The translations under genes and the position numbers were made by a program. Shown here one piece after another: positions 1,530 through 9,204 of a stretch of 9,453 nt of DNA (positions are counted from its first letter, which is position 1; each line of letters starts with the position of its first letter). The notes beneath the pieces were generated by a model that ran no database searches, was not told where the DNA came from, and worked only from the letters and a program-made list of their open reading frames with translations. This DNA is from Symploca sp. SIO2E9 (GTDB lineage: Bacteria > Cyanobacteriota > Cyanobacteriia > Cyanobacteriales > Coleofasciculaceae), in the NCBI GenBank assembly GCA_010692645.1, contig JAAHGS010000235.1, positions 1 through 9,453 of the forward strand, given 5' to 3'.

Positions 1530-4500
1530 ATGAAACGCATTGTACTCATTGCCGGGTTTGAATCCTTCAACACTGACTTATACCGCAAAGCAGCTGAGCT
1601 GGCAACTAAACGCTGCCCGGAATTAGATATCCTGGTGTTTAGCGATCGCTCCCTCAATTCTGAACCTGCAGCTGTACAAGCTGCTCTACAAGACGCCGAT
1701 GTCTTCTTCGCCAGTCTAATCTTTGATTATGACCAGGTTATCTGGCTGCGCCAACGAGTGCAACAGATTCCCATACGCTTGGTATTTGAGTCAGCCCTAG
1801 AATTAATGAGTTTGACTCAAATCGGTGCCTTTAAAATTGGGGATAAGCCCAAAGGCATGCCTAAGCCAGTTCAATTTATTCTTAGTAAATTTTCCAGTGG
1901 CAAAGAAGAGGATAAACTCGCTGGATACATCAGCTTTTTGAAGACAGGGCCTAAACTCCTAAAATTTATCCCTGTACAAAAAGTCCAAGACTTACGCAAC
2001 TGGCTAATTATCTATGGTTACTGGAATGCTGGCGGCTCAGATAATGTGGCGTCGATGTTTTGGACTTTAGCGGAGAAATACTTAGGGTTAAAGGTAGGAA
2101 CCATTCCGCCTCCGGTAGAAACCCCAAATATGGGATTATTGCATCCAGATTATCAAGGATATTTTGAATCCCCACAAAAATATTTAGAGTGGTATCGCCT
2201 GAGTAAACCAGAAACCTGGCATCTGCCGGTGACAGGCATCTTACTTTATCGCAAGCATGTGGTAACTAAACAGCCCTATATTAACCAGATGATTCGCTAC
2301 TTTGAGCAATCTGGATTAGTACCACTGCCTATTTTTATTAATGGTGTTGAAGGGCATGTGGCGGTAAGGGATTGGATGACAACTGCCTACGAAACTGCCC
2401 AAAGAAAGTTAGGTAAGGTGGCAACTCCTTCCCTATCGACTGAGGCAATGGAAGTTGATGCCATTGTTTCTACTATTGGCTTCCCTTTAGTAGGAGGACC
2501 TGCAGGTTCGATGGAAGCAGGGCGTCAAGTGGAAGTTGCTAAAAGAATTCTTACTGCTAAGAATGTACCTTATATTGTGGCAGCACCACTGTTAATTCAA
2601 GATATTTATTCTTGGACACGCCAGGGTATCGGGGGGTTGCAAAGTGTCGTCTTATATGCTTTGCCAGAATTAGATGGAGCAATTGATCCTGTGCCCCTTG
2701 GTGGTTTAGTGGGAGAAGATATTTATTTAGTTCCAGAGCGAGTCAAGCGACTAACTGGGCGTATCAAGGGTTGGGTTGCTCTGAGTAAGACACCACCAGC
2801 AAACAGACGCATTGCCATTTTACTCTATGGCTTTCCTCCTGGATACGGAGCAACAGGAACAGCAGCTTTATTAAATGTACCGCGATCGCTACTTAAATTG
2901 CTACAGGCACTTAAAGAGCAAGGCTATACCATTGGCGATTTACCTGAAGAGGGTGAAGAGTTAATTCGTATGGTGAAAGAGGCGGATGAAGTGCCAGAGA
3001 ATAAGGAAGATTCTAATAGTTCCTCTCGGGTTAATGTTAAAACCTTGGAAAAATGGTTAGGTTATCTGCTAACTACTCGTATTGAGAAACATTGGAACTC
3101 TCTAAGTGGTGCTGGTATCAAAACCTATGGGGATGAATACCATCTCGGCGGTGTACAGTTAGGGAATATTTGGATTGGCGTGCAACCTCCCCTAGGTATT
3201 GCTGGGGATCCAATGCGGTTAATGTTTGAGAGAGATTTAACTCCTCATCCCCAGTATGCAGCTTTTTATAAATGGTTGCAGAATGACTTTCAGGCTGATG
3301 CTGTAATTCATTTCGGTATGCACGGCACAGTGGAATGGTTGCCTGGTTCTCCTCTTGGTAATACTGGCTATTCTTGGCCAGATATTTTGTTGGGAGATAT
3401 GCCGAATCTCTATATCTATGCTGCCAATAATCCCTCAGAGTCAATTTTGGCAAAGCGCCGTGGTTATGGTGTGTTAATTTCTCATAATGTACCGCCTTAT
3501 GGTCGTGCTGGTTTATATAAGGAGTTGATGGCGCTGCGGGATTTAATCTCGGAGTATCGGGAAGAACCAGAGAAAAATTATGCTCTTAAGGAAGGGATTT
3601 GTAAGAAGATTGTCGATACTGGCTTGGAGGCAGATTGTCCCTTTGAGGATGCCCAAAAACTGGGAATTGCCTTTACTCCCGAAAATGCCCAGATGTTTAG
3701 TAATCACAGTTTTAATGACTATTTATTAAAGCTTTACGAATACCTGCAAGTAGTAGAAAGTCGCTTATTTTCCACTGGTTTACATGCACTGGGTGAGATT
3801 CCGGATTCCGAGCAATTGGCTTCCTATCTGCAAGCCTATTTCGGAGAAGATTTACCGGAAAACTTGATTAACGAGATTGCCTCGGGAACAGATAGCGCTA
3901 GTATCGATAATAAATTTGAACTCAACGGCAAAACTCCGAAATTAGAAGAGGCTTTACAAATCCGTGACTTGCTATCCCAAACTAATGAGGAAATGGTTAA
4001 CCTGTTGCGGGGATTAAATGGTGAATATATCCCCCCAGCACCAGGAGGGGATTTATTAAGGGATGGCCCTGGAGTATTGCCCACAGGCAGAAATATTCAC
4101 GCCCTTGATCCCTATCGGATGCCTTCTCCAGCAGCCTATGAAAGGGGTAGAGAAGTTGCTAAAAAAATTATCGCTCAGCATCTAGAAGAACATAATCAGT
4201 ATCCAGAAACTGTAGCAGTAATGTTGTGGGGATTAGATGCCATTAAAACTCGTGGTGAATCTCTGGGAATTTTATTGGAATTGGTTGGAGCTCAACCTAT
4301 CAAAGAAGGCACAGGGCGAATTGTACGCTATGAATTAAAACCTTTAGCAGAAATTGGACATCCCCGTATTGATGTTTTGGCTAATTTATCTGGTATCTTC
4401 CGGGATAGTTTTGTCAATATCTTGGAATTACTCGATGATTTATTCCTACGGGCAGCCCAAGCCCCAGAATCAGAAGCAGAAAATTTTATCCGCAAACACG

Positions 4501-5258
4501 CTTTAGCACTGCAATCTCAAGGAGTGGAAAATGCCTCTGCCCGGTTATTTTCTAACCCAGCCGGGGATTTTGGTTCCATGGTAAATGAGCGAGTGGTAGA
4601 TAGTAACTGGGAATCAGGAGATGAATTAGCCAAAACCTGGCGCGGACGCAATGCTTTCAGTTACGGTAGAAAAGATAAAGGTCAAGCACGCCCAGAAATT
4701 CTCTCCCAATTACTACAAACCACTAGCCGTGTTGTTCAAGAAATCGACTCAGTAGAATATGGTCTTACCGATATCCAAGAATATTATGCCAATACTGGGG
4801 GTTTGAAGCGGGCAGCAGAAAAAGAAAGTGGCACTAAGGTAAACGCCAGTTTTGTCGAAAGTTTCTCTAAAGATACAACACCCCGCAACTTAGAAGATTT
4901 ACTGCGTCTGGAGTATCGCACCAAATTACTTAACCCCAAGTGGGCAGAGGCAATGGCAAATCAAGGTTCTGGCGGAGCCTATGAAATTTCGCAGCGGATG
5001 ACAGCTTTAATTGGCTGGGGCGGTACTGCCGATTTTACTGATACTTGGGTTTATGATCAAGCTGCTGATACCTATGCTTTTGATTCAGAAATGGCGCAGA
5101 AGTTACGAGAATCTAATCCTGAAGCTTTCCGTAATCTTGTCGGCAGAATGATAGAAGCCCATGGGCGGGGTTTCTGGCAAGCTTCTGAGGAAAAATTGCA
5201 GAAGTTGCGAGAGTTATATGATTTAACGGATGAGGAAATTGAAGGAATAATTAAGTAA
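1530..5258 (+). CDS. chlH: Magnesium-chelatase subunit H family protein (ChlH/BchH-like, CobN/Mg-chelatase superfamily), a short paralog.
   Basis: The 1242-aa ORF has an N-terminus (IVLIAGFES...ADVFFASLIFDYD) that aligns to the ChlH N-terminal domain. It also carries the family signatures HFGMHGTVEWLPG (3309-3347) and LPTGRNIHALDP, which are closer to ChlH/BchH than to CobN. It is shorter than canonical cyanobacterial ChlH (about 1330 aa). Confidence 0.85.
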   Translation: MKRIVLIAGFESFNTDLYRKAAELATKRCPELDILVFSDRSLNSEPAAVQAALQDADVFFASLIFDYDQVIWLRQRVQQIPIRLVFESALELMSLTQIGAFKIGDKPKGMPKPVQFILSKFSSGKEEDKLAGYISFLKTGPKLLKFIPVQKVQDLRNWLIIYGYWNAGGSDNVASMFWTLAEKYLGLKVGTIPPPVETPNMGLLHPDYQGYFESPQKYLEWYRLSKPETWHLPVTGILLYRKHVVTKQPYINQMIRYFEQSGLVPLPIFINGVEGHVAVRDWMTTAYETAQRKLGKVATPSLSTEAMEVDAIVSTIGFPLVGGPAGSMEAGRQVEVAKRILTAKNVPYIVAAPLLIQDIYSWTRQGIGGLQSVVLYALPELDGAIDPVPLGGLVGEDIYLVPERVKRLTGRIKGWVALSKTPPANRRIAILLYGFPPGYGATGTAALLNVPRSLLKLLQALKEQGYTIGDLPEEGEELIRMVKEADEVPENKEDSNSSSRVNVKTLEKWLGYLLTTRIEKHWNSLSGAGIKTYGDEYHLGGVQLGNIWIGVQPPLGIAGDPMRLMFERDLTPHPQYAAFYKWLQNDFQADAVIHFGMHGTVEWLPGSPLGNTGYSWPDILLGDMPNLYIYAANNPSESILAKRRGYGVLISHNVPPYGRAGLYKELMALRDLISEYREEPEKNYALKEGICKKIVDTGLEADCPFEDAQKLGIAFTPENAQMFSNHSFNDYLLKLYEYLQVVESRLFSTGLHALGEIPDSEQLASYLQAYFGEDLPENLINEIASGTDSASIDNKFELNGKTPKLEEALQIRDLLSQTNEEMVNLLRGLNGEYIPPAPGGDLLRDGPGVLPTGRNIHALDPYRMPSPAAYERGREVAKKIIAQHLEEHNQYPETVAVMLWGLDAIKTRGESLGILLELVGAQPIKEGTGRIVRYELKPLAEIGHPRIDVLANLSGIFRDSFVNILELLDDLFLRAAQAPESEAENFIRKHALALQSQGVENASARLFSNPAGDFGSMVNERVVDSNWESGDELAKTWRGRNAFSYGRKDKGQARPEILSQLLQTTSRVVQEIDSVEYGLTDIQEYYANTGGLKRAAEKESGTKVNASFVESFSKDTTPRNLEDLLRLEYRTKLLNPKWAEAMANQGSGGAYEISQRMTALIGWGGTADFTDTWVYDQAADTYAFDSEMAQKLRESNPEAFRNLVGRMIEAHGRGFWQASEEKLQKLRELYDLTDEEIEGIIK
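1642..1649. repeat. HIP1 palindrome GCGATCGC
   Basis: Exact octamer read in the sequence. It is a cyanobacterial signature. Confidence 0.9.
2882..2889. repeat. HIP1 palindrome GCGATCGC
   Basis: Exact octamer read in the sequence. Confidence 0.9.
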
Positions 5259-5340
5259 TAAGTAATAAGTAATAAGTAATAAGTAGGTTGGGTTGAGTAA
5301 TAAGTAATAAGTAATAAGTAATAAGTAATAAGTAATAAGT
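5253..5340. repeat. Tandem heptamer (AAGTAAT / AGTAATA) array in two blocks, STRR-like.
   Basis: Block 1 spans 5253-5284 (about 4.5 units) and block 2 spans 5296-5340 (about 6.5 units). They are separated by GTAGGTTGGGTTGAG (5283-5297). The chlH-like TAA stop (5256-5258) lies inside the first unit. Confidence 0.95.
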
Positions 5341-5342
5341 AG

Positions 5343-5385
5343 GTTGGGTTGAGCAAATGCGAAACCCAACATTTATAATGTTTTT
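5343..5385 (+). terminator. Possible intrinsic terminator for the chlH-like gene.
   Basis: An 8-bp stem pairs GTTGGGTT (5343-5350) with AACCCAAC (5363-5370) around a 12-nt loop, followed by ATTTATAATGTTTTT. The T-run is not adjacent to the stem, so the call is weak. Confidence 0.3.
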
Positions 5386-5421
5386 CTGGAGGGTGAACGC
5401 AATTTTGTGTGGGACTTGAAT

Positions 5422-5470
5422 TCTCCGCGTCTCCGCGTCTCCGCGTCGACCTGTCTCCGCGTCTGGAGCG
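5422..5470. repeat. Tandem octamer TCTCCGCG array.
   Basis: There are three perfect units (5422-5445), a degenerate unit TCGACCTG, one more perfect unit (5454-5461), then TCTGGAGCG. Confidence 0.9.
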
Positions 5471-5573
5471 TCTGCTTACTTATTTCCCCACGCCTTTTTT
5501 CGCTCACCCTTTTCTGGGTTTCGTTTCTCAACCCAGCCTACAGGATTGAGGGCTGAGATACACCTAGTTCTGT

Positions 5574-5608
5574 TCCCTGCTCCCTACTCCCTGCTCCCTG
5601 CTCCCTAA
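5574..5608. repeat. Tandem heptamer TCCCTGC array (5 units), STRR-like.
   Basis: Units read directly: TCCCTGC, TCCCTAC, TCCCTGC, TCCCTGC, TCCCTAA. Confidence 0.9.
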
Positions 5609-5692
5609 AACCGAGAATGATGGCAATGAACCATGAACTATTGCCAAATGCCATAATAGCGGTGAAAGTCCTCAATTTACGATGAAACCGTC

Positions 5693-6100
5693 ATGACACT
5701 GGAATTATTAGCCGCAGAAAAAATAGCTGAACTAGCATTTGGTGCTGTTATCGAAACTGGTGCTAGTGAATTGGTTAAAAAGTTGTGGGGGAAAATTCGT
5801 AACAAACTTAGAAGTGAACCTGTAGCCGAAGCGGCTTTAGTGGAAATTGAGCAAAATCATTCTAGGGAGCAGCTAACGAAGATTGTACCTTTTCTACAGG
5901 TGGAGATGCTTAAAGATCAGCAGTTTGCCCAGGAAATGCAAGCTTTAGCTCACGAAATTAACACTGGCTCGCAAGAGAATATTACCCAGCAGGATTTTGA
6001 AGCTCGTGATAATGCTGGTGTTGTTGGCAAGCAAGTAGGAACAGTTAACAAGGCAGGTGTCACTGAAATTGGAACTCAGATTAACGTGGGAAAGGAGTAA
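5693..6100 (+). CDS. Small helical protein with a Gly/Gln/Val/Asn-rich tail. It is a putative N-terminal effector or adaptor module of the downstream NB-ARC-TPR protein.
   Basis: The 135-aa ORF has an amphipathic N-terminus (MTLELLAAEKIAELAFGAVIETGASELVKKLWGKI), a helical middle and the tail NAGVVGKQVGTVNKAGVTEIGTQINVGKE. It lies on the same strand as the STAND gene, 71 nt upstream of the annotated TTG start. I recognise no enzymatic motif. Confidence 0.6.
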   Translation: MTLELLAAEKIAELAFGAVIETGASELVKKLWGKIRNKLRSEPVAEAALVEIEQNHSREQLTKIVPFLQVEMLKDQQFAQEMQALAHEINTGSQENITQQDFEARDNAGVVGKQVGTVNKAGVTEIGTQINVGKE

Positions 6101-6160
6101 CGGCAGAGGAAGTCCAAGAGTTTTTTAAAAAACTTGAGCAAGGGAATTCCTCAGTTGCCG
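6088..6160 (+). promoter_or_regulatory. Candidate -1 programmed ribosomal frameshift cassette: slippery heptamer G_GGA_AAG, 6-nt spacer, stem-loop.
   Basis: The zero frame reads GTG GGA AAG GAG TAA, so the heptamer 6088-6094 fits X_XXY_YYZ. The spacer is GAGTAA (6095-6100). The stem-loop spans 6101-6160 with these pairs: 6101-6105 with 6156-6160 (CGGCA/TGCCG), 6106-6111 with 6147-6152 (GAGGAA/TTCCTC, with a 3-nt bulge at 6153-6155), and 6113-6115 with 6143-6145. The apex is the palindrome AGTTTTTTAAAAAACT (6119-6134). The -1 frame is open from 6085 and is the frame of the NB-ARC gene. Confidence 0.4.
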
Positions 6161-6171
6161 CTTCCACTAAC

Positions 6172-8436
6172 TTGATTACCACCCCGCCAAACTTAAATAA
6201 CTGGCTTGGTAGAGAAAAGGAAATTAGCCAACTGCAAACCTGGCTCTGTGATACCGCAGTTAATCTGATTGGTATTCAGGGTTTGGGTGGTGTCGGCAAA
6301 TCGGCTTTGGCAGCTTATCTTTATAAACATATTGAGTTTTCGGATAAATTTTGGGCAGATATTAGTCAGAAGCCTGATTTTGTCGTCTTTGCTGAGAAGG
6401 TAATTACTGCTTTTGGTGGGCAAGTTACTAAGCAAGGAGATATCGACGGATTGATTAATGATTTGCTCACCTGCCTTAGTCAGCGTCGGTGTTTGCTGGT
6501 GGTGGATAATCTCGAAACCCTGCTAACCCAATCGCGGCAGTGGCAAGATTCAACCTATGAGCAATTTTTCAGCCGTTGGCTGCAGCAGGGAAGTAACAGC
6601 ACATTGCTACTAACTACCCAGGAAAAGCCAATTCTGTTTCAATCACAACCCTGTTGGCATCTATTGCGGGGAATGAACATTAGTGATGGTGGGCTACTTT
6701 TGCAGCGTCTGGGTATTCAGGAAACTGTTACGCAATTAGAAGAGTTTTCCAAGGCAGTGGATGGGCATCCCCTTACCTTGCAGTTAGTGGCTGGCTATTT
6801 GCGGGAATATTGTCATAGTCAGTTGAGTAGTGCTTGGGAATTAGGATTAAAGCAGTTTGAGTTAGTAGCAGAAGCTCAAGGAGTACACCGAGATAAGCAG
6901 GATGCGCGTTTATCCTGGATTTTACAGCAGCACTTTCAGCGCTTAACCCCTGTGCAGCAAAATTTCCTGGTTAATTTGAGTGTCTATCGGCAAGCATTTA
7001 ACCACCAAGCAGCAGGTTGGATGTTGGCTTCAGAAACAGAAGTAGTTAAGCCAGTGGTAGTGCAGAAGGAATTACGGGAACTATTCAACCGCTCCCTATT
7101 GCTGGAAACTGAAGATAGAAAGTATCGATTTCAGCCTTTGGTACAACAATATGCTCAGCAGCAAACCACTGATATCAATACTGCTCACCAAAAAGCGATC
7201 GCTTACTACAACTCAAATACTAAACAACAACCCTGGCAGACGCTAGAGGATGTCAGAGCCTATCTGGAAATTTTCTATCACTACTGTCAATTAGAACAGT
7301 ATGCCCAAGCCTTTGATACAATCGGCATCTGCGACGAGTTTTTAGATCTACGAGGTTACAATACCATCCGAGTCGAAGTGTATGGACAGTTGGTGCAAGA
7401 GTGGAAACTGAATCAGGATAACCAGTGGAAACTCTCAGCATCTCTGACATTCTTGGGCAATGCATACTATTCCCTCGGACAATACCAACAGGCGATAGAA
7501 TACCATCAGAAGTCATTAAAGATTTTTCGAGCAATTGGCAACCGCTCCGGTATTGCTAATTCTCTGAATAATCTGGGCATAGCATACAATTTCCTAAGAC
7601 AATACCAACAGGCACTCGATTATCTTCAGCAGTCGTTGCAGATATTTCAACAAATCCCTAACCACTCTGGAATTGCTAAGTCTCTGATGAATCTTGGTAT
7701 TGCATACAATTGCCTAGGAAAATATCAACAGGCGCTCGACTATCTTCAGCAGTCGTTGCAGATATTTCAACAAATCGTTAACCGCTCCGGCATTGCTCAT
7801 TCCCTAATGCATCTGGGCATTGTATACAAATCCCTAGGAAAATACCAACAGGCACTCGATTATCTTCAGCAGTCGTTGCAGATATTTCAACAAATCGGTA
7901 ACCGCTCTGGAATTTCGGATTCTCTGAATAATCTGGGCATAGCATACAAATCCCTAGGAAAATACCAACAGGCGCTCGATTATTATCAGCAGTCGTTGCA
8001 GATTAAAAAAGAAATTGGTAACCGCTTTGGAATTGCCAATTCTCTGATGAATCTGGGCAATGCATACTACGCTCTAGGAAAATACCAACAGGCGCTCGAT
8101 TATTATCAGCAGTCGTTGCAGATTAAAAAAGAAATTGGCAACCGCTCCGGCACTGCCAATTCTCTGATTGGTCTTGGTATAGCATACAATTGCCTAAGAC
8201 AATACCAAAGGGCACTCGATTACTTTCAGCAGTCGTTGCCGATTACTCAAGAAATTGGTGATCGTCATGGGGAAGCCAAATCTTGTTTTAATTCTGGATT
8301 TGCCTTAAAAGAACTAGGTAAAACATCAGAAGCTATTACCGCTTATCGAAATGCACGCCAACTATATCAAGCAATGGGACTAGATGCCAAAGTTCAGAAT
8401 TGCGACCATGTGATCGAAACTTTAAATTCAACTTAA
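6172..8436 (+). CDS. NB-ARC (STAND / AP-ATPase) NTPase with a C-terminal TPR array, an NLR-like protein. The true N-terminus is uncertain.
   Basis: Motifs present: Walker A GLGGVGKS (6280-6303), Walker B CLLVVDNLE (6490-6516), LLLTTQ (the hhhTTR-like motif), GHPLTLQLVAGYL (the GxP/'GLPLAL' motif), a winged-helix-like segment LSWILQQHFQRLTPVQQNFLVNLSVY, and at least 8 TPRs. The only in-frame start is a TTG at 6172 with no Shine-Dalgarno sequence. The frame is open upstream to 6085. Confidence 0.85.
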   Translation: MITTPPNLNNWLGREKEISQLQTWLCDTAVNLIGIQGLGGVGKSALAAYLYKHIEFSDKFWADISQKPDFVVFAEKVITAFGGQVTKQGDIDGLINDLLTCLSQRRCLLVVDNLETLLTQSRQWQDSTYEQFFSRWLQQGSNSTLLLTTQEKPILFQSQPCWHLLRGMNISDGGLLLQRLGIQETVTQLEEFSKAVDGHPLTLQLVAGYLREYCHSQLSSAWELGLKQFELVAEAQGVHRDKQDARLSWILQQHFQRLTPVQQNFLVNLSVYRQAFNHQAAGWMLASETEVVKPVVVQKELRELFNRSLLLETEDRKYRFQPLVQQYAQQQTTDINTAHQKAIAYYNSNTKQQPWQTLEDVRAYLEIFYHYCQLEQYAQAFDTIGICDEFLDLRGYNTIRVEVYGQLVQEWKLNQDNQWKLSASLTFLGNAYYSLGQYQQAIEYHQKSLKIFRAIGNRSGIANSLNNLGIAYNFLRQYQQALDYLQQSLQIFQQIPNHSGIAKSLMNLGIAYNCLGKYQQALDYLQQSLQIFQQIVNRSGIAHSLMHLGIVYKSLGKYQQALDYLQQSLQIFQQIGNRSGISDSLNNLGIAYKSLGKYQQALDYYQQSLQIKKEIGNRFGIANSLMNLGNAYYALGKYQQALDYYQQSLQIKKEIGNRSGTANSLIGLGIAYNCLRQYQRALDYFQQSLPITQEIGDRHGEAKSCFNSGFALKELGKTSEAITAYRNARQLYQAMGLDAKVQNCDHVIETLNST
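7195..7202. repeat. HIP1 palindrome GCGATCGC
   Basis: Exact octamer read in the sequence. Confidence 0.9.
7432..8391 (+). repeat. Eight tandem 120-bp (40-aa) TPR-coding repeats. The central six (7552-8271) are near-identical at the DNA level.
   Basis: A 36-nt block TATCTTCAGCAGTCGTTGCAGATATTTCAACAAATC is exact at 7621, 7741 and 7861. A 65-nt block is exact at 7954-8018 and 8074-8138. The repeats are phased exactly 120 bp apart. Confidence 0.95.
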
Positions 8437-8517: not shown

Positions 8518-8895
8518 CTACCAATTAATTACCGTCAGAACATTAACCTTGGCAAATTCCTGATCAGCCGTTACTAAAGTTGCCGAATTTTGGATCGCCA
8601 TTGCCGCAATGATAGCATCCGGTAATTTCAACCGAAATTGTTGGCGAGTTTCAATGATTTTCTCAACCAGTAATATGTCAGTTGACACTAAACTAATCAC
8701 CTCTACTCGTTGAACAAACTGCTGAAAAAGTTGACGATCAGCTTGAGTCAGCCCAGAAAACGCCAGAAACTCAATTTGGCTAATCACTGAAATTCCTAGC
8801 CAATCAGCATTTAGCAATAATTGAACGAGTTGATAATTTCCCTGGAGTAGCGCTACAATTGCATTCGTATCCAACAGGTAGCGATCACCACTCAT
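8518..8895 (-). CDS. vapC: PIN-domain toxin (VapC-like ribonuclease) of a type II toxin-antitoxin pair.
   Basis: The 125-aa protein starts at MSGDRYLLDTNAIV. It has the PIN acidic residues in the expected order: LLDTN, SQIEF, LPDAIIAA, VTADQEF. Its ATG (8893-8895) overlaps the upstream antitoxin stop. The longer ORF start at 8931 would add 12 non-conserved residues. Confidence 0.85.
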   Translation of the reverse strand: MSGDRYLLDTNAIVALLQGNYQLVQLLLNADWLGISVISQIEFLAFSGLTQADRQLFQQFVQRVEVISLVSTDILLVEKIIETRQQFRLKLPDAIIAAMAIQNSATLVTADQEFAKVNVLTVINW

Positions 8896-9109
8896 CCCGG
8901 AGATTCCTCTGCATAGCAACTGCATCTCCATTCCAGGTTAATTGACCTACCAAATCAGAGAAATCATACTTGAACAGCGGCTTCTCGACAGATGAAATTG
9001 GATTCAATACAATGACGACATTGACCTCGGCATCTGCTAATTGGGTCGGAATATTAAGATTCAAACAACCAGACTCATCAATTTTCGTCGTCAGTTTTAT
9101 AACTTCCAT
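8885..9109 (-). CDS. Putative antitoxin partner of the PIN toxin (VapB-like).
   Basis: The 74-aa ORF starts at ATG 9107-9109 (MEVIKLTTKIDESGCLNLNIP...). It lies directly upstream of the PIN gene and overlaps it by 11 nt (8885-8895). The C-terminal ...GDAVAMQRNLRDEW tail is typical of small cyanobacterial antitoxins paired with PIN genes, from my recollection rather than a search. Confidence 0.65.
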   Translation of the reverse strand: MEVIKLTTKIDESGCLNLNIPTQLADAEVNVVIVLNPISSVEKPLFKYDFSDLVGQLTWNGDAVAMQRNLRDEW

Positions 9110-9204
9110 GATCAAGAGCGTGAAAGATTTCTTTCTAGCTTATCCTAGTAGTGCGATCGGTACGCCTCTAGTCGTTGATCATACGGACAAATCTTGACAA
9201 TTAA

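Follow-up and report, generated by a model that had tools for sequence, protein, structure and literature searches.

Organization of the locus

The window analyzed in this study, a stretch of 9,453 nucleotides from the filamentous cyanobacterium Symploca sp. SIO2E9 (contig JAAHGS010000235.1), carries a small open reading frame (ORF) whose 3' end overlaps a long ORF that codes for an NB-ARC/TPR receptor in the -1 frame. The junction between these two ORFs, which an earlier note made from the sequence alone had described as a -1 frameshift cassette, is the subject of this report.

The small ORF occupies positions 5693–6100 of the forward strand, starts with ATG, and codes in the zero frame for a protein of 135 residues. 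Its 3' end reads ATT AAC GTG GGA AAG GAG TAA and contains the slippery heptamer G_GGA_AAG (6088–6094, forward strand), which is in phase with the small ORF and conforms to the X_XXY_YYZ rule, with both tRNAs able to re-pair in the -1 frame. A TAA in the -1 frame (6082–6084, forward strand) sets the 5' limit for a -1 shift that produces a fusion, and the zero-frame stop TAA (6098–6100, forward strand) lies within the 6-nt spacer between the heptamer and a downstream stem. From 6085 onward the -1 frame is open as far as the stop at 8434–8436 and reads RGKGVTAEEVQEFFKKLEQGNSSVAASTNLITTPPNLNNWLGREKE... into the P-loop GLGGVGKS (6280–6303). The two frames overlap over 13 nt, and the heptamer is inside this overlap. 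A slip at the heptamer would join 134 residues to 780 and yield a product of 914 residues with the junction ...INVGK|GVTAEE; the predicted transframe junction peptide is INVGKGVTAEEVQEFFK, which spans INVGK|GVTAEEVQEFFK. Re-reading the sequence and translating the frames gave the same ORF end, in-phase heptamer, open -1 frame, and stop position as those reported in the earlier note. The bare string GGGAAAG occurs once in the 9.4 kb, against 1.7 occurrences expected; its phase and position, which are also conserved in relatives, are the unusual feature, and not its mere occurrence.

The receptor ORF (6094–8436, forward strand) consists of 780 codons plus a stop in the -1 frame. An NB-ARC domain at about 6211–6861 (Pfam NB-ARC, 1.5e-10; 41.2 bits vs. 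a cut-off of 23.5) contains the P-loop, or Walker A motif, GLGGVGKS in the receptor frame, and is followed by a TPR array at about 7372–8406 (Pfam TPR_12, 7e-69), both on the forward strand. With a Walker A-bearing NB-ARC domain and then a TPR array, the ORF has the makeup of an NLR-like NB-ARC/TPR STAND NTPase. The segment between the heptamer and the NB-ARC domain (6094–6210, forward strand) is a linker that reads GVTAEEVQEFFKKLEQGNSSVAASTNLITTPPNLNNW in the -1 frame and has no conserved start codon. A promoter and terminator scan of 5250–6400 found neither a terminator between the two ORFs nor a promoter-like site, and this terminator-free gap is weak evidence for a single mRNA.

Conservation of the junction among orthologous loci

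Ten orthologous loci were compared: the window, L067, L001, L006, L068, L069, L020, L002 (identical to L021), L070 (identical to L071), and L072. They were defined by the linker ...T.TEY..(I/L)LE...G.G...V..S.NLITTPPNL.NW.GRE.EIS.LQ and come from independent assemblies, namely several Symploca metagenome-assembled genomes (MAGs), two other GenBank MAGs, a Logan assembly, a TARA scaffold, and ENA and GenBank metagenomes. Their synonymous divergence (dS) reaches ~0.45 and beyond. The earlier note had named such a comparison as a test of its proposal, and the outcome agreed with it: all ten loci have the receptor in the -1 frame together with an in-phase heptamer. The heptamer is G_GGA_AAG in the window, L067, L020, and L002, and G_GGA_AAC in L001, L006, L068, and L069. 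L070 and L072 have A_AAA_AAG (...GAA AAA AAG TAA), and their receptor is still in the -1 frame (...KK|VILTTEY...); the small proteins of these two loci are 64–66% identical to that of the window.

The layout around the heptamer is equally constant. In the eight G_GGA loci, the frames overlap by 10–13 nt with the heptamer within the overlap, and the -1-frame TAA corresponding to 6082–6084 is kept in seven, with TGA in its place in L069. The zero-frame stop follows the heptamer after 0–1 codons in 10/10 orthologs. The tail sequence around the heptamer diverges between orthologs, and the glycine codon of the heptamer is GGA in 8/8 G_GGA loci, compared with 17–39% of the glycine codons in these genes. 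Thus, the shift site and the frame relation are conserved beyond coding needs, as seen in their presence in all ten loci, in the GGA bias, and in the replacement of one heptamer by A_AAA_AAG. In Escherichia coli, with stimulators present, -1 shifting is most efficient on C_CCA_AAG, G_GGA_AAG, and A_AAA_AAG, and the top class there is V_VVA_AAR (Sharma et al. 2014, PMC4066793), in line with the view in the earlier note that the window's heptamer is prone to shifting.

A search of 5.8 billion proteins found none that includes the sequence on both sides of the predicted junction, and the interruption is therefore universal in the window's clade; uninterrupted versions were found as distant all-in-one fusions and in no close relative. 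The flanking genes of the two-ORF cassette differ in every genome, and for this reason it seems that the cassette is mobile or often changes its location.

Initiation codons and the linker

In the receptor frame, no canonical start codon precedes the TTG at 6172–6174 (forward strand), which is the one used by gene callers. Every assembly that we examined calls these receptors with arbitrary downstream starts. Sequence inspection showed no purine-rich Shine–Dalgarno sequence before this TTG, as the earlier note had stated in naming it as the only other start of the downstream ORF. Codon alignment added that the TTG is not conserved as a start: it is present in the window, L067, L001, and L006, and is replaced by CTG or CTA in L068, L069, L020, and L002 and by CTG in L070 and L072. 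The codon is a leucine codon within the conserved peptide 'NLITTPPNL', which varies by synonymous substitutions of the kind expected in translated sequence (AAC/AAT, ACC/ACA/ACT, CCG/CCA, and CCA/CCC/CCG/CCT). Judging from the alignment, TTG 6172 is probably an internal leucine codon and not a conserved start. In addition, L002 and L068 have no ATG, GTG, or TTG 25 or more codons before the P-loop, and codon alignments revealed no conserved near-cognate start codon after the stop of the small ORF. The AAGGAG that extends over the heptamer and stop was considered as the Shine–Dalgarno sequence of a hidden start and rejected, since it is absent in L001, L006, L002, and L020 and no start codon lies at a workable distance downstream.

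The linker has insertions and deletions in multiples of three (9 nt in the window and L067 and 3 nt in L002), and it is homologous to the translated linker of receptors with their own ATG; one linker sequence is shared by L037, a relative whose receptor has its own ATG, and L024, a relative of the frameshift type. These frame-preserving indels and the homology to translated linkers are the main support for the coding status of the linker. Over its 38 codon columns, 18, 20, and 26 are variable at the first, second, and third positions, respectively, which amounts to a weak third-position bias.

Downstream stem-loop

A stem-loop at 6101–6160 (forward strand) starts 6 nt 3' of the heptamer, and its basal stems are formed by 6101–6111 and 6147–6160. 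RNAfold analysis of 6095–6175 reproduced this structure, pairing CGGCA with UGCCG, GAGGAA with UUCCUC, and UCC with GGA beneath a U/A-rich apical helix, at -22.1 kcal/mol (z = -1.96; 9 of 200 shuffled sequences fold as well). A 9-bp long-range basal stem starting 6–8 nt after the heptamer is found across the ten orthologs; it consists of CGGCAACUG/CAGUUGCCG in most loci and of CGGCA+GAGGAA/UUCCUC+UGCCG in the window. Over the ten loci, this stem is paired in 87.8% of the alignment cells vs. at most 58% for slid controls. Double-sided changes occur in six basal-stem cells, a number matched in 1 of 500 shuffles, so that the stem is partly compensatory in its changes. The stem-loop proposed in the earlier note was thus recovered with a conserved basal part, and its T6A6 apex turned out not to be conserved among orthologs. 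The whole window had no Rfam match, and no conserved upstream Shine–Dalgarno-like stimulator was seen in the window's class.

In several relatives with A_AAA_AAG, G-rich runs resembling Shine–Dalgarno sequences (GGTGG, GGGTGG, and GGGGGG, encoding 'IGG') lie 10–13 nt upstream of the heptamer, at ~13 nt in L009, L024, L027, L030, and L035 and at 10 nt in L028, L031, and L064. This distance equals the spacing of the upstream stimulator of dnaX. The runs could be frameshift enhancers or simply coding sequence of the motif.

The small protein and its relatives

Pfam and NCBIfam searches with the product of the small ORF gave no matches, and the product is 100% identical to a hypothetical protein annotated in Symploca sp. 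SIO2E9. A word-indexed search retrieved 18 relatives, all of 116–189 residues, and a profile search of 1.84 billion representatives yielded 312 family representatives. Among the best 150 of these 312 matches, almost all are standalone proteins of 120–155 residues. The few long members include P0066 (967 residues) and P0124 (957 residues), in which the same N-terminal domain, a G/Q/T-rich motif, an NB-ARC domain, and TPRs are encoded by one uninterrupted ORF.

An AlphaFold2 model built with a 78-sequence alignment has a five-helix domain at residues 1–93 (5693–5971, forward strand) with helices at residues 8–20, 26–39, 43–55, 58–74, and 76–91, the first of which is hydrophobic. The per-residue confidence (pLDDT) is ~76–92 over residues 1–90. 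A fold search of the PDB with this model returned nothing significant (best E value, 1.5). We infer from gene context that residues 1–93 form a Bell/HeLo-like membrane-targeting effector domain; five helices and a hydrophobic first helix characterize the model, and no Pfam or significant PDB match was obtained.

The remainder of the protein (residues 94–134, 5972–6094, forward strand; ...DNAGVVGKQVGTVNKAGVTEIGTQINVGK) is a disordered C-terminal tail rich in G, N, Q, and V with a pLDDT below 50. The end of this tail coincides exactly with the shift site. The tail is variable among relatives, and 'QINLG' recurs in it. It also contains two pseudo-repeats in the window (6010–6094), NAGVVGKQVGTV and NKAGVTEIGTQI, an arrangement that recalls HET-s-type beta-solenoid amyloid motifs, whose effector side has two repeats.

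Junction types in the wider family

To place the window among its relatives, the DNA around relatives of the small protein was analyzed by script, which gave 60 distinct junctions. A -1 overlap with an in-phase heptamer was found in 14 of them, and all 14 lack an in-frame ATG before the P-loop. Besides the orthologs, this type includes two groups with A_AAA_AAG. In the 'HEKK*' group (CAC GAA AAA AAG TAA), the heptamer precedes NB-ARC/TPR receptors, and two of its members, L030 and L035, have no ATG, GTG, or TTG anywhere before the P-loop. In the 'QKKS*' group (CAA AAA AAG TCG TAG), the heptamer joins the small protein in the -1 frame to an unrelated receptor class, an nSTAND1 NTPase with WD40 repeats (L028, 3423–3435; L031; L033; L064). 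The post-shift sequence in these nSTAND1-WD40 loci (...KKVVVERDALGNAILAGDGNIVIFQTS...) looks like a beta-rich motif.

A second type, with 13 of the 60 junctions, has a single in-frame TGA and no ATG; the receptor is in the same frame as the small ORF and open from the next codon. It includes complete genomes of Microcystis (CCT GAA TGA CTG...), L003, and L007. A single TGA in the same frame was seen in L014–L016, L018, L054–L056, L059–L061, and L065 (Microcystis), L003/L004, L007, and L026, with a context that is mostly TGA-C. L026 is the exception among these loci in that an ATG lies ~10 residues before the conserved W.GR. Outside L026, the TGA-type receptors, whose N-termini were compared, have no N-terminal motif of their own. 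From their sequence arrangement, the TGA junctions look like programmed UGA readthrough serving the same purpose as the frameshift. A related observation concerns L046, which has an in-frame TAG and whose linker (SSERERTKLNPP) is directly fused in the uninterrupted P0100 (SSERDRTKLTPP).

The third type comprises 18 of the 60 junctions, in which the receptor has its own ATG. An in-phase heptamer within the last eight codons of the small ORF was found in 0 of these 18. The N-terminus of such receptors mirrors the C-terminal motif of the small protein, as in NIAMNATAYDNSTVKMVGKIE vs. EINLSATAQDQSKVNLIGKIE, with z scores of 9–16.5 in five of six pairs tested. No mirrored motif was found in the receptor ORFs of the recoding type (alignment z below 1; z = -0.7 in the window). 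Hence, the receptor ORF of the window lacks the motif shared between effector and receptor, and only the frameshift product would carry it.

The three types are connected by their receptor bodies. L037 (own ATG and motif) and L024 (A_AAA_AAG) both have 'LEASSKAESVGIKAGDPPKSLA.WQGRDEEI', and L003 (TGA) and the window (-1) both have 'VAAS.NLITTPPN'. Essentially the same receptor body with different junctions suggests that the recoding junction takes the place of the methionine and motif that a receptor would otherwise have of its own. Since the receptors of the separate-gene relatives carry a copy of the equivalent tail at their N-terminus, the C-terminal tail of the small protein may by analogy be taken as an amyloid-type signaling motif, and the best reading of the 135-residue module, as modeled, is that of a helical effector ending in such a tail. 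The earlier note had regarded the module as an effector for the NLR; a helical effector is what the model suggests, and the fusion probably supplies the receptor with an amyloid-type tail as well, not with the effector domain alone. Residues 3–214 of the predicted window fusion align as one segment with residues 5–222 of the uninterrupted P0066 (E value, 6e-19). Because the predicted fusion is collinear across the junction with natural all-in-one proteins (P0066 and P0124), the fused effector–NLR architecture appears to be viable in nature.

The receptor ORFs downstream of recoding junctions are intact, with 700–990 codons, except that of L002 (317 codons). The ratio of nonsynonymous to synonymous divergence (dN/dS) is 0.24–0.38 for the window against L001, L006, L068, and L069, 0.10–0.20 within the HEKK group, and 0.30 in the nSTAND1 group; values of 0.6–0.8 for Microcystis pairs are uninformative because these sequences are too similar (dS ~0.08). 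These values indicate that the receptor ORFs are functional and under purifying selection.

Two minor features of these loci were recorded. Low-complexity, Pro/Ser-rich in-frame insertions are located directly after the NB-ARC 'AAYLY' in L003 (5640–5700), L002 (5660–5700), and, just past the P-loop, L070 and L072; examples are ...SPTSPASP... and EISTPSASSPSPSSPSPRLPS, and in L003 a palindromic cccctctcc...ggagagggg element is present. These insertions resemble short repeat elements of cyanobacteria that the NTPase domain can accommodate. In L023, which has the same A_AAA_AAG junction as L024, an extra frame break near locus position 3500 in a C6 run (C7 in L024) puts the NB-ARC domain in the +1 frame. 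This break is probably an assembly error or decay, in contrast to the conserved heptamer junctions.

Proposed mechanism and alternative explanations

We consider it likely that programmed -1 ribosomal frameshifting at a set ratio produces both a free 135-residue effector and a 914-residue effector–motif–NLR fusion from this locus, as the comparison of orthologs suggests for the two products put forward in the earlier note. The locus would then be a recoding cassette of two ORFs on one mRNA. Most ribosomes would translate the 135-residue protein and terminate at TAA 6098, and a set fraction would slip by -1 on G_GGA_AAG (6088–6094), with tRNA-Gly moving from GGA to GGG and tRNA-Lys from AAG to AAA. 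The stem 6 nt downstream probably aids the slip. The slipped ribosomes would proceed through the start-less linker into the NB-ARC/TPR receptor and complete the 914-residue protein, in which effector, tail, linker, NB-ARC, and TPR follow one another. The rare fusion would act as the sensor: its tails, when oligomerized, would nucleate an amyloid fold and thereby recruit and activate the abundant free effector, which may be pore-forming, at a stoichiometry set by the shift efficiency. As both products would be read from the same codons, the motifs on the sensor side and the effector side would always be identical. The templating of the free effector by receptor oligomers is proposed by analogy with the separate-gene members of the family and with published Bell/BASS systems.

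On balance, though with somewhat less assurance than for the window itself, we favor an extension of this reading to the family: these cyanobacterial effector–NLR loci would use interchangeable recoding, by a -1 shift on G_GGA_AAG or A_AAA_AAG or by UGA readthrough, to make the sensor as a sub-stoichiometric extension of the effector. Such a Gag-Pol-like arrangement would guarantee the identity of the nucleation motif and hard-wire the ratio, and it would have evolved repeatedly, including onto nSTAND1-WD40 receptors.

Several observations weigh against frameshifting or limit what it explains. The window and its closest relatives keep TTG 6172, and some independent initiation may remain. At the protein level, the central part of the linker shows little conservation, its codons have only a weak third-position bias, and the stem-loop of the window folds only moderately better than shuffled sequences. 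Both arms of the stem code for conserved peptide and the covariation comes from four divergent loci, which makes it suggestive only; in addition, no convincing consensus structure was found downstream of A_AAA_AAG in relatives outside the ortholog group. Four of the ten orthologs have G_GGA_AAC, which is outside V_VVA_AAR, and the motif efficiencies are E. coli values that may not hold for cyanobacterial ribosomes. Finally, the Bell and amyloid roles rest on context, as the fold matched no solved structure and the Pfam search was empty.

The alternative that survives best, which we nevertheless regard as unlikely, is that the locus consists of two ordinary adjacent genes. The receptor would be initiated at TTG 6172 or at a non-canonical codon, through coupling or termination–reinitiation, and would have no N-terminal module, and the heptamer would be incidental. 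This is how gene callers annotate the locus in every assembly, with the TTG available in the window and three orthologs; Bell/NLR pairs are normally separate genes that are closely spaced or overlapping (Dyrka et al., bioRxiv 2020), and a bare GGGAAAG is not rare. Against this, the TTG is CTG or CTA in six orthologs and lies inside a conserved peptide, several relatives have no ATG, GTG, or TTG upstream of the P-loop, and no conserved near-cognate codon follows the stop. Adjacent genes would also leave unexplained why the most slippery heptamers occur in phase within a short overlap in three unrelated junction contexts, why they are absent from 18/18 own-ATG receptors, and why the receptors without a start also lack the mirrored motif.

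Far less probable is that the same pair of N-terminally coincident products arises from slippage of RNA polymerase, or from slipped-strand phase variation of the DNA, in GGGAAAG or the A7 run instead of from a ribosomal slip. In the relatives with A_AAA_AAG, seven A do follow one another, and transcriptional slippage can occur on homopolymer stretches (review PMC5009743). The motifs, however, obey the in-phase X_XXY_YYZ re-pairing rule, which is relevant to ribosomes only. Exactly seven A are found in all A-run loci, and no length variant that would give a fused ORF is present in any assembly or protein database. In GGGAAAG no run exceeds three nucleotides, which is far below the length needed for slippage of a polymerase or during replication.

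A sequencing or assembly error, or a recent 1-nt indel that turned a single fused effector–NLR gene into a pseudogene, both listed as alternatives in the earlier note, is the least credible explanation: although the window was assembled as a MAG contig, distant relatives do have uninterrupted fusions, and the extra break of L023 in a C6/C7 run does resemble error or decay, this explanation is contradicted by the same junction in ten independently assembled loci at dS up to ~0.45 and beyond, by the 5.8 billion proteins of which none spans the junction, by the zero-frame stop 0–1 codons after the heptamer throughout, and by intact and constrained receptor ORFs.

Returning to programmed frameshifting as the preferred reading, its components have been described separately in known systems. 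Effector–NLR gene pairs with Bell domains and bacterial amyloid signaling (BASS) motifs occur in filamentous bacteria (Dyrka et al., bioRxiv 10.1101/2020.01.06.895854), and Bab/Agp is an antiphage system (bioRxiv 10.1101/2024.11.07.622273). Like these, the window has a helical domain of ~100 residues with a short C-terminal motif, directly upstream of and collinear with an NB-ARC/TPR or, in relatives, another STAND receptor; the hosts are multicellular or colonial cyanobacteria, and the separate-gene family members show motif mirroring. Unlike these, the receptor ORF of the window has neither a start codon nor a motif and is joined by a -1 heptamer (by an in-frame TGA in relatives). A motif mirrored between the effector C-terminus and the receptor N-terminus is the defining signature of Bell/BASS pairs (Dyrka et al.). 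Since published Bell/BASS screens required the motif at the annotated receptor N-terminus, screens for motif pairs would miss loci such as this one.

The junction also resembles known -1 frameshift cassettes in having an in-phase heptamer of the V_VVA_AAG class, a zero-frame stop just downstream, and a predicted structure after 6 nt, and in its predicted output of an abundant short product and a rarer, N-terminally coincident fusion. It differs in its partners, which are a STAND/NLR receptor and a presumed death effector and not a transposase, virion protein, or polymerase. With dnaX, which makes tau and gamma using A_AAA_AAG and a downstream hairpin, it shares the heptamer class and a similar stem spacing, and A_AAA_AAG itself is used in L070 and L072. 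The shift truncates the DnaX protein, whereas in the window it would extend the protein by 780 residues. As in Gag-Pol, frameshifting in some related loci of the family and stop-codon readthrough in others appear to serve one purpose. The predicted 914-residue product has the same module order as all-in-one effector–NOD–repeat NLRs, such as the fungal HeLo/HELL-NLRs, bacterial examples (Dyrka et al.), and P0066 and P0124. Unlike those proteins, the fusion would arise only by recoding, alongside an excess of free effector.

The key Bell/BASS papers make no mention of frameshift, readthrough, or stop codons, full-text searches of the literature on recoding in NLR/STAND proteins, Bell/BASS pairs, and antiphage systems found nothing relevant, and a large recoding review lists no such case. 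Thus, -1 programmed ribosomal frameshifting and effector–NLR amyloid signaling are both known, and their combination, together with the interchangeable use of two heptamers and UGA, appears to be undescribed.

Programmed -1 frameshifting of cellular bacterial genes has mostly been found in dnaX, insertion sequence (IS) elements, and phage genes. If the preferred reading is correct, chromosomal immune-type genes join this short list, and the family provides a natural, non-viral example of frameshifting and stop-codon readthrough being interchangeable for one purpose. It also suggests a third way of linking sensor and effector, in addition to permanent all-in-one fusions and to separate genes in which the amyloid motif is duplicated, and this way would fix the stoichiometry and remove the need for two motif copies to co-evolve. 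For annotation, it means that receptors of this kind carry arbitrarily called starts and would be missed by amyloid screens based on motif pairs.

Neighboring genes

Upstream of the cassette, a TnpB-family RNA-guided endonuclease ORF (IS200/IS605 OrfB) lies on the reverse strand at 255–1229 (324 residues, TTG start; NCBIfam guided_TnpB, 2e-63). Another TnpB adjoins the orthologous cassette in L070. A gene for a CobN/magnesium-chelatase H subunit (ChlH-like; 1530–5258, forward strand, 1242 residues; Pfam CobN-Mg_chel, E = 0) is immediately upstream of the cassette and is a housekeeping gene unrelated to it. Directly downstream of the NLR gene is a toxin–antitoxin pair on the reverse strand: a PIN-domain VapC-like toxin ORF of 137 residues (8518–8931) is overlapped on its upstream side by an ORF of 76 residues (8885–9115) that has no Pfam match and is probably the antitoxin.

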